A stretch of DNA of 54,095 bases from Deltaproteobacteria bacterium (GCA_034670305.1 JAXMNT010000050.1:1-54095); one strand, 5' to 3'. Shown: positions 13,630 to 21,131, counted from the first letter of the stretch. Program-made: numbers and translations. The notes: generated by a model from the letters alone, not told the origin.

Positions 13630-15711
13630 ATGGCCTACACCGTTTTCGCTCGCAAATACCGACCCCAGACCTTCGCGGACCTCGCGGGTCAGGAGCATGT
13701 CGCGAAAACCCTGACAGGGGCGATCGCCGTGGGCCGGGTCGCCCACGCCTTCTTGTTCACCGGGGTGCGCGGCGTCGGCAAGACGAGCGCGGCTCGGGTC
13801 CTGGCCAAAGCGCTCAACTGCGAGACCGGTCCCACCGCGACCCCCTGCAACGTGTGTTCGGTCTGCAAAGACGTGACGGCCGGGGTCGACATGGACGTCG
13901 TCGAGATGGACGGCGCCTCGAACAACAGCGTGGACGATGTTCGGCGTCTCCAGGAGACGCTCCCGTTCCGTCCTGCACGCGGCCGCTTCAAAGTCGTCAT
14001 CGTCGACGAAGTGCACATGCTCTCGACCGCGGCGTTCAACGCGTTCCTCAAGACGCTGGAAGAGCCGCCGCCCCATGTGAAGTTCATCTTCGCGACGACC
14101 GAGAGCCACAAGGTACCGATCACGATTCGCTCGCGGTGCCAGCGCTACGACTTCCGGCTCATCCCCCGCGCGATCATCGCGGAGCGGGTGCGCGCGATCC
14201 TCGAATCGGAGAAGGTCCAAGCGGACGATGCGACGGTCGCGCTGGTGGCACGCGAAGCGGCGGGCTCGATGCGGGACGCGCTCACGCTGCTCGACCAGAT
14301 CGTGGCCTTCGGTGGCGACCGACTCGAAGGAGAAGAGGTCGCGCGGCACCTGGGCATCGCGGCCCGCGGCGCGGTCCAGAGTGTGGTGCAGGCGATCTTG
14401 GACGGCGACGCCGGCACGGTGTTGCGCTTTCTCGACGAGAGCCTCGCGCAAGGCACCGACCCGCTTCACTTCACCAACCAGCTGCTGCACCTGCTTCGAG
14501 ACCTGGTCGTGCTCTCGGTGACCGGCGACGACAGCGCGCTCGTGGATCTGGTCGCCGAAGAGAAGAAGGCGGCGAGGGTGCTCGCCGACTCCCGCGACGT
14601 GCTCGAGTTGCAGCGGGTGTTCTCGGTCGTCTCGAAGGTCGTGGACGAGGTCGCCCAGGCGAGCTCGCCGAAGCTGGTGCTCGAGATGGGTCTCGTTCGG
14701 GCGGCCACCCGGCCGGCGCTGCAGCCCGTCGGAGAACTGCTCGCCCGCTTGAAGCGCCTCGAGAGTCAGATCGGGCCCGGTCGCGCCGCGGCGGCCGGCC
14801 GGAGTCGTGCGCCAGGCGGCGGTCGCCCGAGAGAGGAGCGGGCCGGCGACAAGCCGGCCCCGCCAAGAGGCGCGCCCCGCGCGCCCCGAGCCAGCCAACC
14901 CAGCGCAGCAACTACGGATTCCAGCGCTGGCGCACCCGCCGAGGCACCCGGGTCGCGACGCGCCGAGTCGGCGGGCCCGATAGGCGCCACCGCACCCAGC
15001 GCCGCGTCGGGCGGTCCGACGGGTGCCGCGATGGCGTCCTCCGCACCCTCCGCACCGCGATCCGCACCGTCTGCTTCAGCTCCATCCTCGCCTGCTTCGG
15101 CTTCACGTTCCGCACCTGCTTCGGCTTCACGCTCCGCACCCGCGCCCGCACGCTCGACCGATCCGCGCGAGCGGCCGTTCGCGCCCGACGACGCGGCGCC
15201 CGCGCGGCCAGCCCGGGCCGAGCGCTCGCCTGGGCCATCGCAGTCCCCAGCCGCCGGTCCCAAACCCGCCGAGGTCCAAATCCGGCGGGCAGCGCTCCTC
15301 GAATGGGAGCGCATCGTGGCCGCCTTGCGAGGTCCGAAACCGGCACTCGCCGCGGTCCTCGAACACGCGGAGCCTCGAGTGGTGACCGGTGAGCGGGTCG
15401 TCATCGCGTTCAAGAAGGGTTCGTTCTACGGCCATCAGGCCGGCAGCCCGGACGCGCGGGACATCATCGGGCAGATGGTCGAGAAGACGTTCGGCAAGAG
15501 GCCGAAGATCGAAGTCGTCTTCGACGCGAAGGGCGGCGGCCGGCGCACCGTGGCGGTGGTGGAAGAGACCCGCCGAGACGGAGAGCTCGCGGCCCGCAAA
15601 CGCGAAGCCCTCGCGCACCCCGTCGTGCGCGACGCGATGCAGATCTTCCCGGCGTCGCGCGGCAAGGTCGCGGTGAAGCTCGCAGACCACGCCGGCGAAA
15701 GCGACTCATGA
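13630..15711 (+). CDS. dnaX: DNA polymerase III subunit gamma/tau
   Basis: ARKYRPQTF, Walker A GVRGVGKT, Zn cysteines, DEVHML, SRCQ, long Pro/Ala/Ser linker; dnaX-ybaB-recR synteny. Confidence 0.97.
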   Translation: MAYTVFARKYRPQTFADLAGQEHVAKTLTGAIAVGRVAHAFLFTGVRGVGKTSAARVLAKALNCETGPTATPCNVCSVCKDVTAGVDMDVVEMDGASNNSVDDVRRLQETLPFRPARGRFKVVIVDEVHMLSTAAFNAFLKTLEEPPPHVKFIFATTESHKVPITIRSRCQRYDFRLIPRAIIAERVRAILESEKVQADDATVALVAREAAGSMRDALTLLDQIVAFGGDRLEGEEVARHLGIAARGAVQSVVQAILDGDAGTVLRFLDESLAQGTDPLHFTNQLLHLLRDLVVLSVTGDDSALVDLVAEEKKAARVLADSRDVLELQRVFSVVSKVVDEVAQASSPKLVLEMGLVRAATRPALQPVGELLARLKRLESQIGPGRAAAAGRSRAPGGGRPREERAGDKPAPPRGAPRAPRASQPSAATTDSSAGAPAEAPGSRRAESAGPIGATAPSAASGGPTGAAMASSAPSAPRSAPSASAPSSPASASRSAPASASRSAPAPARSTDPRERPFAPDDAAPARPARAERSPGPSQSPAAGPKPAEVQIRRAALLEWERIVAALRGPKPALAAVLEHAEPRVVTGERVVIAFKKGSFYGHQAGSPDARDIIGQMVEKTFGKRPKIEVVFDAKGGGRRTVAVVEETRRDGELAARKREALAHPVVRDAMQIFPASRGKVAVKLADHAGESDS

Positions 15712-15742
15712 AAGCGTCTCATGAAAGCGACTCATGAAAGCG
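15697..15742. repeat. Tandem 13-bp repeat GAAAGCGWCTCAT x3.5 covering the dnaX stop
   Basis: Units at 15697-15709, 15710-15722, 15723-15735 and a partial unit at 15736-15742. Confidence 0.9.
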
Positions 15743-15761
15743 CTCCGGCTCCCTTCGGCGC

Positions 15762-15789
15762 TTGACAGGGCTCTCGACGCGGCAAAGAT
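15762..15789 (+). promoter_or_regulatory. Putative sigma70 promoter for ybaB-recR
   Basis: Perfect TTGACA at 15762-15767, 16-nt spacer, weak -10 AAAGAT at 15784-15789; SD AGAGGT at 15806-15811. Confidence 0.45.
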
Positions 15790-15816
15790 GCCGCGTTCCA
15801 CGACTAGAGGTATGAA

Positions 15817-16137
15817 ATGAAGTTCCGAGGCGGAATGGCTGAGCTCATGCGGCAGGCCAGCCGAATGCAGCGCAAGATCGAAAAACGGCGCGAAGAGCTC
15901 AAAGACGATGAGTACGAGGCCGGCGCCGGCAACGATCTCGTCAAGGTGACCGTCAACGGCGGCGCCGAGGTCGTGAAGGTCACGATCGATCCGAAAGCCC
16001 TCGAAGACGAAGGTCTCGAGATGGTGTGCGATCTGCTTGCGGCCGCGACGAACGCGGCCCTCACCAAGGCGCGCGAACACGTCGACGCGGAGCTCGAGAA
16101 AGTCACCGGCGGCTTGAAGATCCCCGGACTCGGCTGA
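15817..16137 (+). CDS. ybaB: YbaB/EbfC nucleoid-associated protein
   Basis: MRQASRMQ, AGNDLVKVTVNG, DLLAAATN, TGGLKIPG; lies between dnaX and recR. Confidence 0.95.
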   Translation: MKFRGGMAELMRQASRMQRKIEKRREELKDDEYEAGAGNDLVKVTVNGGAEVVKVTIDPKALEDEGLEMVCDLLAAATNAALTKAREHVDAELEKVTGGLKIPGLG

Positions 16138-16148
16138 ACGTCGCGTCC

Positions 16149-16766
16149 ATGTCCGAATCCGGAAAGAAGCAGTCGGGCGATCCCCTCGGGGAGCTCGTCG
16201 GGCTGCTCGGCCGACTCCCCGGCATCGGGGAGCGGACCGCGACCCGGCTCGCCTTCCACGTGCTCGGGGGAGACGCGACCTACGCAGAAGCACTGGGTGA
16301 GTCGCTCGCGAACATTCACGAGCGCGTGGTCCGGTGCGAGCGCTGCGGCAACTACGGCGCCGAGTCCGTGTGTCTCATCTGCGCGGACACCCGCCGCGAA
16401 GAAGGCGTGCTCTGCGTGGTCGCGCGGGTTCCGGATCTGGTCGCGATCGAACGCAGCTACACGTACCGCGGTCGCTACCATGTGCTCCATGGGCTTCTGG
16501 CGCCGCTCGACGGAGTCGGTCCCGAGGACCTCTCGCTCGACCCGCTCCTGCGCCGCATCGAAGCCGAAGCCATCCGCGAGGTGATCGTCGCCACCCCACT
16601 GAACGTGGAAGGCGAAGCGACCGCGCTCTACATCTCGCAAGTGCTGCAAGAAGAGACGAAAGCAAAGGTCTCGCGCATCGCCAGCGGCGTGCCCCACGGT
16701 GGAGAACTCGAGTTCACCGATCAGGTCACCCTCGGCCGCGCGCTCCAAGACCGCAAGAACATGTAG
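16149..16766 (+). CDS. recR: Recombination mediator RecR
   Basis: [13 protein letters not shown] (HhH), C4 Zn finger, [38 protein letters not shown]. Confidence 0.97.
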
Positions 16767-16770
16767 CCAA

Positions 16771-17045
16771 GCGGCAGCGGACGCGGAAGCGGAAGCGGGC
16801 GCGGAAGCGGAAGCGGAAGCGGAAGCGGAAGCGGAAGCGGAAGCGGAAGCGGAAGCCGTCGCCGAAGCCGAAGCCGACTCCGACGCCGACGCCGACGCCG
16901 ACGCCGAATCCGAATCCGAAGCCGAAGCCGACGCCGAATCCGAAGCCGAAGCCGTCGCCGACTCCGAAGCCGACGCCGACGCCGAAGCCGAAGCCGAAGC
17001 CGACGCCGAATCCGACTCCGACTCCGACTCCGACTCCGATTCCGT
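16771..17045. repeat. Compound hexamer microsatellite (GCGGAA)n-(KCCGAM)n
   Basis: Fills almost the whole gap between the convergent recR and RNAP-like genes. Confidence 0.95.
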
Positions 17046-17049
17046 CTGC

Positions 17050-19926
17050 TCAGTCGATGTCGTCGAGGTCGTCGAAGTCGTGGGACTCGACTTCTGCGGG
17101 CGCGCTCGGAGCCGGCGCTTGGGTCCGGACCGGCGTGACCGGCGCTGTGGGGGCCGGAGGTGGCGCGTCGAGGCGCATGCCCAGAGAGAGGCCGAGTTCG
17201 CTCAGGATCTCCTTCAGCTCCTTCAAAGTCTCGCGGCCCGCGTCTCTCATCTTGAGCACGTCGACGTCGGACTTCTGGACGAGCTGCCGCAACGTCACGA
17301 CGCCCATGTTCTGGAGCAGGTTCGCGGTGCGGACCGACAACTCGAGTTCGTCCACGCGCCGTTCCAGATACGGATGGGTTGGGGGCGGCTCGTCGACGGC
17401 CGACTTGGGGATCGGGTCGTTCCACGAGGACGCGCCCCTGGCGTCGCCTTCGGGCGCGGGACCGCTTCGCAGGCCGAGCAGGCGCCGACTGCGGAGGTCT
17501 GTGAGCGGATCGACGCGCTGGTGGAGGGCGGCGCCCATGACAACGGCGGCGAACTCCGTGGGCGATGCGTCGATCGCTGCCGCCAGCCAATGCGCCTTGG
17601 CGTGCGCGCCGCCAACCGAGCCCGCGCCTGCCTCGGAGTGAAGCACCCGTAGCCCCCGGACCTCGTCGATCGCTCGGGCCGAGAGCGGCACGTGGACCGC
17701 GACCGATTCGCCGGCCGCCAGCTGGAGCGTGTCGATGAGCGAGGGCGCGAGCCCCACCGCGAACCCGTCCCAGAGTTCCACTCGGAGTCCGAGCGCGCTG
17801 GGTCCGCTGGCGCCGGGTTTGGTGACGAGCAGCACAGGGTGGTCCCGCATGCCCGACTCGGCGATGGCCTCCAGGAGGTCGCCGCCTTTCTGGACCATGA
17901 CTTTGGCCGACTTGATCGTCGTCACGTAGCCAGCCGCCTCGAGCCGGCCGTAGATCATGGGTTTGAAGAGTTCGGTCGCCAGACTGCGGGGGAGCCGGAC
18001 GCAGTCTTCTGAGAGACGAGGGACCGGCACCACCACGGCCGCGCCCGAGTAGTCCACCCGCTTGCCCCGCTCAGCCATCTGCATGTGGCTGTGTGTGAGG
18101 TCGGCGATGGGGCGCAGCCTCCGCTTCTCCGGTTCGCCCCGGCTGTCGTCGAAACCGAGCACCGTCCCCCCGCGCGCGCCGTTGTCCACGAGCGCCCCGA
18201 GTGCTCCTTGAAGGTGTCCGACTTCGCTGCGCAGGATGGGAAACGGCGCATTCAGCTCGAGCAAGCGTTTCATCCGGTTGCTTCGGTTGATGAAGCGCCG
18301 GTAGAGGTCGTTCAGGTCCGAAGTCGCGTAGCGCCCGCCGACCAGGGGCACGATCGGCCGCAGATCCGGCGGAAGCACTGGCCAGGTTTCGTAGAAGACG
18401 TGATCGATCAGCGGCCGGTCGTCGGTGCGGGTGCGGCGCACTTCGTCGCGAAGGGCGTAGACGCCGCCCGACGCCAGATCCTCGGCAGGCGAGAGCGCGT
18501 AGGTGAGGTGCTCGCGCACGATGCGCGCGACCGTCTTCTCGTCGGTGCCGAGCCATTCGGCGAGCGGACCGTAGCCCCACGGGTGCAGGACGGGGACCGG
18601 CAGATCGACGTGTCCGAACCGCTCGCGCCGCACCTTGCTCGCGATGACTTCGACCCCGCACTTCTCGCAGACCACCCCGCGGTGTTTCATGCGCTTGTAC
18701 TTGCCGCAGACACACTCGTAGTCGGCGATGGGCCCGAAGATGCGCGCGCAGAAGAGCCCGCCGGCCTCCGGCTTGTGCGTCCGGTAGTTCAGCGTCTCTG
18801 GCTTCTGCACCTCGCCGTGCGAGCGGGCCCGGATCTGGGCGTCGCTCGAGAGGGTGAGCAGCATCTGGGTGAGTGTGTCGGTGCTCTGCGGTTTCTCGAA
18901 GAACGAGAAGATGTCGCGCTTCTTCTCCGGTGCCGGCGAGGCCGTGGGCGAGATCCCGGTCGTCACCTCGAAGCCCAGCCCGATGAGTTCCCGCTTCAGC
19001 ACGTGGGTGAGCTCGGGAATGCCCGCGTCGAAGGTCGTCTGCTGTTTGACCAGCCCCTCGTACGCGCGGGTTCGGCCGGACACGTCGTCCGTCTTGATCG
19101 TGAGCAGCTCGTGGAGCGTCTGCCACGCGCCGGCGGACTCGAGCAACGCGGCGTGGGCGCCGGTGAAGAGCTGGCCGCCAAACTGCGCTTTGCCGCCGAG
19201 CGGTTGCTGGGTGACGATCGAGTAGGGCCCGATGCCCCGCGCGTGCAGAACGGCTTCCGCGCACTGGATCTTCTGCACCTCGAAGGTGCCGGCCGGGCCC
19301 GACCAGACCATCGCTGCGCCGGCGGGAAGGTCCTCGCTGATCTCGGAGACCACCGCTCGTTCGCCGCCAAGAGTCAGCACATCACCGACCGCCAGCGCGC
19401 GGTGGTCGGTGACGTCGACCTCCACCCGGATCGACTTCTCGCCCACCTCTCGCACGGCTCGGGTCACGGTGCCTTTCGCGTCCGGCGGGCAAGCCACCGA
19501 GGCGTCGCGCACGTCGCCCGCCATCTCTCCGAAGATGGCGCGCAGCAGCTTCTCTTCTTGCGACAGCAGGGTGCTCGCCTTGTCCTGCACCCGGCCGATC
19601 AGGATGGTGCCGGGCACGACGACCGAGCCGGATTTGGCCACGCCGTGTTCGTCCAGGTGGGCCAGCACCGCGGCGCCCTTGTTCGGGATGTCGAAGGTGA
19701 AGGACTCGCGCGCGTCTTTGGCGGTGGAGACCTCCGCTGTGAACGTCTGTACGTGGGTCGAGGCCAGGGCCGCCGCGGCGCTCGGGCGGATGCGCACGGA
19801 GGCCAGGGCGGGCAGTGCGGAGGCCAGGGCGGGCCGGGCGGAAGGCAGGGCGGAGGGGTCCGACGCGACCTGCAGGGAGCAGGCGCGTTCGCCGGAGGCG
19901 AGGGTCAGGGGGCCGGTCTCGAGCAT
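17050..19926 (-). CDS. Single-chain RpoB/RpoC/RpoA-CTD mosaic lacking the RNAP active site (putative RNA polymerase mimic)
   Basis: In order: RpoB flap (DIPN...[11 protein letters not shown]), RpoB C-terminus ([25 protein letters not shown]), RpoC N-terminus ([62 protein letters not shown]), an RpoC C-terminal-like segment, and alpha-CTD ([12 protein letters not shown]). No NADFDGD. Confidence 0.93.
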
Positions 19927-20060
19927 ATGAGCAGAACCTACTACGGGGCCTCCTCCCGAAGTCACCCCTCCGCACGCCACAGCGCCCGTGGGAGGGAGGC
20001 TTGTGCGGGGGCGTGCGCCACTTCTTTAACATCCGCGGTCGTTGTCTCTACCGTCGCGTC

Positions 20061-21131
20061 ATGGAGCAGCTGCGGACCTGGTTGACCAACCCGTATGGGC
20101 GGGCAGTGGCGATCTTCGTGGTGGGGCTCATCGGAAGCTGGATCGTCGCGTTCGCGATCGAGCGCATCCTCAAGGTGATGGTCGGTCGCACCAAGACCGA
20201 CCTCGACGACAAACTCATCGACGCGATCCACAAACCGATCGTCCAGACGGTGGTGGTGCTGGCGCTCGGGTTCGCGCAGCACGAAGTGCCGATGCCGGAC
20301 AAGCTCCACGGCTACACGCTCTCGGCGCTCAAGTCCGCGACGATTCTGATCTGGGTCCGGGCGGGGTTCCACGTGTGGAGCCTCCTGCTCGAAGGGCTCA
20401 GCCGCCGCAGCAAGCAAGGCTCGGTCGTCACGACCCAGACCCGTCCGGTCTTCGAGATGGTCGGCAAGATCCTCGTCGTCGGCGCGGCGGTCTACTTCTT
20501 GTTCCTCGCGTGGAACATCGATGTGACCGCGTGGCTCGCGTCGGCGGGCATCGTCGGCATCGCGGTCGGCTTCGCGGCGAAGGACACGCTCGCGAACTTC
20601 TTCAGCGGCATCTTCATCGTGGCCGACGCGCCGTACAAGATCGGCGACTTCATCGTGCTCGACGGCGGCGCGCGCGGTCAGGTGATCGCGATCGGCATTC
20701 GATCGACCCGGATCCTCACCCGCGACGACATCGAGATCACCATTCCAAACGCGGTCATCGGCAACTCGATGATCATGAACGAAGCCGGCGGGCCGCAGAT
20801 CCACCAACGCGTGCGGGTGGAGGTCGACGCGGCATACGGGAGCGACATCGACCAGGTGTACGAGGTGCTGCTCGAAGCCGCGGCGATCGACGGGATCGAG
20901 AAGTCGCCGGCGCCGGTGGTCCGGTTCGAGGTCTTCGGCGCGTCCGGCCTCACCCACGGCATCTACGTGTGGATCGCGGACGCGGCCGACCGGGACCGCA
21001 TCAAACACGAGCTCAACACCGCCATCTACAAGGCGTTCGCCGCGGCGGACATCGAGATCCCCTACAGCAAGCTCGACGTGTACCTGAAAGAGCTGCCCGA
21101 CGGCTCGAACGAACTCCGCATCGCGGGTTGA
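20061..21131 (+). CDS. mscS: Small-conductance mechanosensitive channel family protein
   Basis: AGIVGIAVGFAAKDTLANFFSG, PYKIGDFI, IGIRSTRI, ITIPN, IEIPY. Confidence 0.92.
   Translation: MEQLRTWLTNPYGRAVAIFVVGLIGSWIVAFAIERILKVMVGRTKTDLDDKLIDAIHKPIVQTVVVLALGFAQHEVPMPDKLHGYTLSALKSATILIWVRAGFHVWSLLLEGLSRRSKQGSVVTTQTRPVFEMVGKILVVGAAVYFLFLAWNIDVTAWLASAGIVGIAVGFAAKDTLANFFSGIFIVADAPYKIGDFIVLDGGARGQVIAIGIRSTRILTRDDIEITIPNAVIGNSMIMNEAGGPQIHQRVRVEVDAAYGSDIDQVYEVLLEAAAIDGIEKSPAPVVRFEVFGASGLTHGIYVWIADAADRDRIKHELNTAIYKAFAAADIEIPYSKLDVYLKELPDGSNELRIAG

Follow-up and report, generated by a model that had tools for sequence, protein, structure and literature searches.

An RNA polymerase alpha-CTD with a decayed DNA-contact face on a catalytically degenerate beta/beta' look-alike from a deltaproteobacterium

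Background

The domain at the C terminus of RNA polymerase's alpha subunit (alpha-CTD) normally grips upstream DNA and also touches sigma, activators and NusA. The clamp helices form the main sigma-binding site of the enzyme, and region 4 of sigma also binds the flap tip.

In the published work referred to here, R265, N294 and K298 are given as the three main DNA contact positions of the domain (PMC5101437), with R265 and N294 entering the minor groove and K298 contacting phosphates (PMC7822876). The alpha-CTD of Thermus is described as being without some of the DNA-contact residues and as giving no stimulation by UP elements (PMC5511352). The acidic residues D259 and E261 are reported to contact R603 of sigma70 (PMC5511352), and the 261 determinant to touch sigma region 4 (PMC1874639).

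In the current analysis we have examined a gene in a stretch of 54,095 nucleotides (the window) from a Deltaproteobacteria bacterium (GCA_034670305.1, JAXMNT010000050.1:1-54095). A sequence-only reading of the window had pointed to a tethered alpha-CTD at the end of this gene, with a charge-reversed DNA-binding face and an acidic tail, and had proposed that the domain was recruited from the normally unlinked rpoA, has probably lost DNA binding and serves as an additional protein bait.

Results and discussion

The gene and the carrier protein

The open reading frame extends over positions 17050-19980 of the minus strand, and the gene itself (17050..19926 (-)), with a likely ATG start at 19926 and a TGA stop at 17052-17050, encodes a single chain of 958 residues that resembles beta, beta' and the alpha-CTD joined end to end and from which the catalytic motif is absent. 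The G+C content at third codon positions is 0.80-0.95 over the entire frame. Pfam domains in the protein are Rpb2_6, Rpb2_7, Rpb1_1 and Rpb1_2, with RNA_pol_A_CTD last. Contigs from all four sequencing runs span 17010-20100 with no variant letters or indels listed; the runs come from one study and are possibly the source data, and hence guard against assembly error only. Sequencing error was considered as the source of the substitutions described below and was set aside on the absence of variants across these runs.

The gene is convergent with an ordinary dnaX-ybaB-recR operon (13630-16766 (+)) whose dnaX has a long Pro/Ala/Ser linker. The gap between recR and the carrier gene is filled by a 6-bp tandem array (16769-17039; AAGCGG, then GAAGCC/GCCGAC units), the unit of which is widely repeated elsewhere as judged from read depth. 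No sigma70-type promoter was found in 16700-20200.

The carrier comprises the beta flap, including the tip helix (19522..19566 (-), identical to the host in 13 of 15 residues), the beta C-terminus, the beta' zinc-binding domain with its cysteines (18655..18714 (-)), the clamp helices (18178..18321 (-), 68% identical to the host), helices that we take to be dock-like (17884..17973 (-)) and a degenerate catalytic loop (17686..17727 (-)) from which all three aspartates of NADFDGD are missing. The clamp helices have been deleted in most of the relatives that bear an alpha-CTD. The protein is not recognised as an active beta' (TIGR02386, 322.6 bits against a cut-off of 963.5) nor as RpoA, as it has no match to the alpha N-terminal domain and scores 52.4 bits against 227.8 for TIGR02027. 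The host encodes intact and separate rpoB and rpoC on contig C47 and one canonical rpoA on contig C40, so that a carrier of only 958 residues does not qualify as a natural RpoBC fusion (NF007172) either.

Residues 776-818 (17473..17601 (-)) correspond to a degenerate form of the conserved C-terminal region of beta' (host beta' about 1310-1352). This homology is clear by profile-profile comparison only (hhalign over 38 windows: best probability 82%, E-value 1.1e-5, runner-up 1.9%), the plain HMM test being weak (E-value 0.01-5 forward; 0/102 at E<0.01 in reverse). The assignment implies that the middle of beta' has been deleted and that the alpha-CTD is attached at the natural end of beta'. Between the beta' end motif and the alpha-CTD lies a flexible tether (17377..17472 (-)) of 34 residues by the measure used.

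The same genome encodes a second, stand-alone beta' N-terminal paralog of 288 residues (G000:C12:91736-92602 (+); L030:5737-6600), which has clamp helices and an acidic D/F tail at its end and is without the zinc-domain cysteines. Similar small paralogs are present in three other genomes (G012, G030 and G033).

The alpha-CTD and its contact residues

The presence of a tethered alpha-CTD at the end of the gene was borne out. The peptides reported earlier are found in the sequence, and the domain (residues 851-920, E. coli alpha 250-319; 17167..17376 (-), starting with HPYL at 17376) matches PF03118 with 51.7 bits, the cut-off being 23.8. Its AlphaFold2 model (pLDDT 85) has the four helices of an (HhH)2 fold and superposes on solved alpha-CTDs with TM 0.84-0.88 and rmsd 1.3-1.8 A among the best 20 Foldseek matches. 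The alignment to E. coli alpha is gap-free, with the numbering anchored on chain 10ma_G 244-327.

In this alignment R265 and N268 are retained as R866 and N869 within helix 1 (17317..17331 (-)), where C269 is replaced by L870, a substitution that had escaped the sequence-only reading. G296 is retained as G897 and S299 has become T900. The acidic residues claimed at the two other main contacts are indeed there: D895 at the N294 position (17242..17244 (-), GAC; AAC in host rpoA) and E899 at the K298 position (17230..17232 (-), GAG; AAG in host rpoA), each codon being one A-to-G change away from that of the host in a genome of 68% G+C. Between them, position 295 is A896 here, L in E. coli and F in the host RpoA. 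Of the triad expected of an UP-element binder, the domain keeps the arginine and has D and E at the other positions. The acidic 261 determinant (17341..17352 (-)) is retained as D859, E860 and E862 (E. coli 258, 259 and 261), and the 287 determinant region (residues 886-890, E. coli 285-289; 17257..17271 (-)) is conservatively retained. Altogether 3/7 DNA residues and 8/8 scored patch residues are kept. The seven DNA residues scored are 265, 268, 269, 294, 296, 298 and 299, a list which we take to represent the DNA contacts. Its positions 265, 294 and 298 are backed by the passages cited from PMC5101437 and PMC7822876.

A family of dead polymerase look-alikes

A profile search over 1.84 billion representatives, with the best 150 matches listed, together with further searches, yielded at least 102 family rows. 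Members were required to match beta' 345-500, to be shorter than 1300 residues, to lack the catalytic motif and to have no match to beta 1-800 or to beta' 505-end; the absence of the catalytic motif is hence a part of the filter and not an independent finding. The named records come from Polyangiales, Polyangiaceae, Kofleriaceae, Archangium and Myxococcales, and none of the homologues found is closer than about 50%. Of 301 genomes of the order, at least 8 have a match to the C-terminal profile over its full length and at least 1 has a match without the alpha-CTD, with 338 weaker rows lying beyond the matches listed in this tally, which is also the only place where the unpublished genome G152 was used. 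We found no description of the family in the full-text literature, a search outside which most subscription journals and supplements lie. Judged from its sequence, the domain is a PF03118 member without an intact set of DNA contacts, inside an undescribed family.

The alpha-CTD is present in 43/102 rows and absent in 59/102. One relative is split into two genes (L023:8336-11121 (-)) that overlap by four bases, GTGA, exactly at the beta/beta' junction; its halves are beta and beta'-alpha-CTD, echoing the rpoB-rpoC operon, and its alpha-CTD shares 72% identity with RpoA, as though it had been renewed not long ago. Two members carry tandem alpha-CTD copies (L025:8352-8830 (-) and P0034).

Members tend toward two forms, one with clamp helices and without the alpha-CTD, often with the flap tip lost, and another with flap tip and alpha-CTD and with the clamp deleted. 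All three surfaces are kept in 6 of the 79 complete rows, the present protein being one of them. The clamp helices are deleted in 33/43 alpha-CTD-bearing members versus 6/59 others (median p 0.5 on independent pairs, non-significant), and the flap-tip helix is kept in 31/34 N-terminally complete alpha-CTD-bearing members versus 25/45 of those without the domain (median p 0.375, likewise non-significant). Striking as these raw counts are, the independent pairs are non-significant, and the alpha-CTD was not taken to co-evolve with loss of the clamp or with retention of the flap tip.

It is conceivable, though doubtful, that this family of myxobacteria is a single-chain dead copy of the clamp and RNA-exit face with an alpha-CTD that trades DNA binding for protein capture, the clamp form serving as bait for sigma2 or NusG and the flap and alpha-CTD form for sigma4 or NusA, and that such a decoy retunes transcription by posing as the core polymerase.

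Pfam scans of the neighbours at 14 loci revealed no shared neighbour genes and no recognisable defence cluster, and conserved partner genes were given up as a candidate on this account. In two related Archangium records a VapBC-like toxin-antitoxin-like pair, a small gene and a PIN-domain gene (L113:1276-1946 and L117:1250-1923, both (+)), is found immediately upstream of the family gene.

These loci bear on the proposal that the alpha-CTD lures phage enzymes directed at alpha, such as the ADP-ribosyltransferases Alt and ModA of T4 or cleavage factors, and so shields the real polymerase. According to the passages cited, Alt and ModA modify R265 (PMC2988021), which is kept here, and phage Rac triggers cleavage of alpha (PMC7552054). 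Against this, R265 is lost in 13/46 family domains, the protein has no effector domain, and the 14 loci share no neighbours or defence cluster save for the PIN-domain pair at the two related ones. A shielding role is accordingly very improbable, and R265 as an ADP-ribosylation bait is not supported.

Selection on the DNA face and on the acidic patch

The family-wide loss of DNA-contact residues, with the acidic residues 259/261 kept, is a real signal. Three sets were compared, namely 46 family domains, 65 RpoA domains and 46 alpha-CTD copies from unrelated proteins. The triad R265, N294 and K/R298 is intact in 63/65 RpoA, 10/46 family and 26/46 unrelated-protein domains, and the acidic pair 259 and 261 is kept in 63/65, 38/46 and 18/46 respectively; the copies in unrelated proteins follow the opposite trend to the look-alike family. 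On reducing the sets to one domain per protein at less than 80% identity (40 family and 24 unrelated-protein domains), the triad is intact in 9/40 versus 16/24 (Fisher p 0.0006), the acidic pair in 32/40 versus 12/24 (p 0.024) and the 287 patch in 33/40 versus 15/24 (p 0.13, non-significant), p values that are overstated since kin are non-independent and the two sets were found differently. The mean identity to the host RpoA is equal (0.58 for the family and 0.57 for the unrelated copies). Ascertainment is unequal, the comparison set having been found mostly via words shared with the host alpha-CTD and the family via its beta/beta' parts, and a small number of the comparison proteins could be pieces of RpoA from faulty assembly.

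Changes per site were counted on a tree of 43 rows made with the beta' part. Each of the seven DNA-contact sites has 11-19 changes there (mean 15.4), and other RpoA-invariant sites outside the core have 13.4 on average. The similarity of the two rates indicates a face that is relaxed rather than selected against. Positions 259 and 261 change 6 and 8 times on the same tree, and they belong to a group (259, 261, 263, 297, 302 and 304) that changes only 2-8 times; as 263, 297 and 302 are kept in the comparison set too, their stability looks structural.

The D/E pair is abnormal for a working alpha, since D294 or E298 occurs in 0/65 RpoA controls. The 33 distinct alpha-CTDs of RpoA from the order show no variation at the seven DNA residues, all of which are also kept in 28 of 32 more distant ones. 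The host RpoA has N294 and K298; had it shared the acidic residues, the earlier interpretation would have been undone. Within the family D294 is seen in 3/46 domains, E298 in 2/46 and both in the present domain only (1/46), the commonest residue at 294 being G (23/46). The face is altered as claimed earlier, and the net reversal of its charge is not upheld: residues 263-272 and 291-301 sum to +3 versus +6 in the host RpoA, the remainder being due to R265, K291, R293, R297 and K301, and the net charge is +3 to +6 in 43/46 family domains. A selected charge reversal was rejected on the rarity of the pair and the positive sum. For D895 and E899 the best reading is drift, on a face that selection no longer constrains, and not a designed reversal.

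The residual charge, with R265, N268, K291, G296 and R297 kept, raises the question whether the protein is still held on DNA or RNA through this domain with little specificity, for instance in the vicinity of promoters. Some family domains do keep all seven DNA residues (3/46) or the triad (10/46). This role seems improbable for the present protein, in which two of the three main contacts (positions as in the cited part of PMC5101437) are acidic, a state seen in 0/65 RpoA. The partial replacement of the DNA-contact residues implies that promoter DNA is likely to be bound poorly. From N294D and K298E here and the triad loss in the relatives, a reduction of DNA binding, which the sequence-only reading had anticipated as a loss, appears likely, and we consider weak binding of UP elements by this domain to be quite probable.

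The acidic tail (residues 949-958; 17053..17082 (-)) follows a Pro/Ala-rich linker (residues 921-948; 17083..17166 (-), pLDDT about 30), and residues 921-958 as a whole are predicted to be disordered. The tail presumably resembles those of SSB. It is present and unusual, as had been noticed, for at least six D/E in the last ten residues are found in only 17 of 3878 heuristically called genes of the genome. A functional role for it gains no support, as it is shared by 4/102 family rows only (this protein, two close relatives and one member without the alpha-CTD), and it was dropped as a family signal for that reason. The tail is a local feature without supported function, and neither it nor the D/E pair is of much interest by itself.

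The possibility that the whole alpha-CTD is a dispensable appendage, derived from rpoA, near-neutral, drifting and repeatedly lost, has to be weighed against the same data. Its presence changes 12 times on a FastTree tree, and well-supported branches require at least 8 of these gains or losses. Of the 59 rows without it, 55 stop no more than 30 residues from the beta' end motif, which makes the absences look real, and one A-to-G change in a G+C-rich genome suffices for each of D and E. A mere appendage would not be expected to retain its fold and core (core leucines 0.89), to change so rarely at the six slow positions or to keep a tether of 26-57 residues in 36 of the 37 members measured; tandem copies in two members and the two lineages that may have refreshed the domain from rpoA also speak against it. 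This explanation appears unlikely.

Possible partners of the proposed decoy

The retention of the acidic 261 patch gives indirect support to a protein-docking role, which we regard as somewhat favoured by the residue pattern, with sigma region 4 as the most likely partner. The domain with its poor DNA binding and acidic patch may aid the flap tip in holding sigma region 4, so that the protein as a whole would be a transcription-factor decoy, a proposal put forward tentatively from sequence comparisons. The DNA face of the domain, being eroded, would bind promoter DNA weakly; the acidic patch (259/261) and the flap-tip helix would jointly hold sigma region 4, and the factors captured in this way would make the look-alike act as a decoy. 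The protein keeps the flap tip, the clamp helices and the alpha-CTD, the host RpoD retains the HPSR motif, and 36 Sigma70_r4 matches occur in the genome. The HPSR motif presumably holds the equivalent of R603. Against this reading, the known contact of the alpha-CTD with sigma region 4 happens on promoter DNA, and the alpha-CTD is absent from 59/102 members. The deletion of the clamp helices in 33/43 alpha-CTD-bearing members weakens the capture of whole sigma for those proteins.

NusA is the other candidate, the alpha-CTD completing a docking site with the flap-tip helix so that NusA or another factor of the RNA exit channel is sequestered. The AR2 region of NusA is said, in work of 2011 attributed to Schweimer, to bind the alpha-CTD via its UP-element site. 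The head of the NusA N-terminal domain is described as acidic in the cited part of PMC7171158, and both features would favour a basic face, which is eroded here. As described in PMC5842316, the NusA N-terminal domain binds the flap-tip helix and one alpha-CTD, beside the zinc finger, dock and beta C-terminus. The alpha-CTD-bearing members keep these NusA-adjacent parts and drop the clamp helices in 33/43, and the host NusA is full-length with a long C-terminal extension. That the known NusA contacts appear to use the decayed basic face counts against a NusA partner, as does the clamp loss being untied to the alpha-CTD on independent pairs (median p 0.5). A complex prediction for the alpha-CTD (846-922) with the host NusA N-terminal domain scored 0.02 against a mark of 0.32 and counts neither way. 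On the whole NusA is a rather unlikely partner.

Docking of sigma region 4 thus remains our preferred, tentative reading. The family is a natural separation experiment, with dozens of diverged alpha-CTDs in which the DNA face has decayed and the acidic patch is kept, a pattern that points to what this undescribed family of dead polymerases binds. If the decoy reading holds, the family would represent a control of transcription by polymerase mimicry, which was not found in the full-text literature searched.

Origin of the domain

The recruitment of the domain from rpoA agrees with its 52% identity to the host alpha-CTD, and rpoA (C40) and rpoBC (C47) are on different contigs, in keeping with the claim of a normally unlinked source. 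On a domain tree of 69 columns, with 4 long-branch rows omitted, a 99/97 branch separates 39/42 family domains, the present one among them, from 25 RpoA domains, and three family domains from two proteins fall among the RpoA domains. The data do not reject a single origin of the family domains (p 0.236). The best fit to these sequences would be a recruitment from rpoA long ago, with perhaps two later renewals; two lineages may have acquired their domain anew from rpoA. A recent copy from the host rpoA is disfavoured by the grouping of this domain with the family domains in the 69 columns. A mobile-element origin was also discarded, as neither the 50,697 phage records nor the 72,556 plasmid records contain a match over 80% of the C-terminal 299 residues.

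Other detached alpha-CTDs have been noticed. In the ESM Atlas, two clusters of full-length beta' (1476-1491 residues; 61 and 53 members) have PF03118 annotated in all members, an annotation that suggests active polymerases with an alpha-CTD on beta'; such full-length beta'-alpha-CTD fusions would be a candidate source of the look-alikes, and none was retrieved from the sequences searched, including 121 Patescibacteria genomes. A group of apparently unnamed long proteins (P0174-P0186) has repeated alpha-CTD copies, many with Sigma70_r4, in which the DNA triad is mostly kept. Stand-alone frames of 69-81 residues made up of the alpha-CTD only are found in Candidatus Binatus and related records (L135:2962-3192, L136:3537-3779, L137:3501-3743 and L138:3498-3704).

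Comparison with known systems

The closest described domain is the alpha-CTD of RpoA (PF03118; PDB 1lb2, 3n97 and 9zum), with which the present one shares the fold (TM 0.84-0.88), 52% identity to that of the host, R265, N268, G296, the 261 patch, most of the 287 patch and a flexible tether. It differs in being a single copy on a beta' C-terminus, in a carrier without the alpha N-terminal domain and the catalytic aspartates, whereas RpoA presents two copies on the alpha dimer; it also has N294D, K298E and C269L, followed by a Pro/Ala linker and an acidic tail. The alpha-CTD of Thermus thermophilus is similar in that, by the published description (the cited part of PMC5511352), the DNA-contact residues have not been conserved in it and UP elements give no stimulation, but it belongs to a working RpoA. 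The alpha-CTD copies in multidomain proteins, present as repeats and often with Sigma70_r4 (PF04545), are likewise detached from RpoA and similarly diverged (0.57 versus 0.58), but they tend to keep the triad (16/24) and to lose the acidic 259/261 (12/24 kept).

The natural beta-beta' fusions of Helicobacter and Wolbachia (NCBIfam NF007172 and NF011417) resemble the carrier in having the beta C-terminus in frame with the beta' N-terminus. They are full-length active enzymes of about 2800-2900 residues, in contrast to the carrier, whose scores of 462 and 388 bits fall short of the cut-offs (5372 and 4632) and which is an extra gene, with an alpha-CTD, beside intact rpoB and rpoC. Rsd and T4 AsiA are anti-sigma or sigma-appropriating proteins that occupy sigma region 4. 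The carrier is predicted to occupy the same region; unlike these proteins, with which no shared sequence family was found, it would do so with surfaces copied from the polymerase itself.
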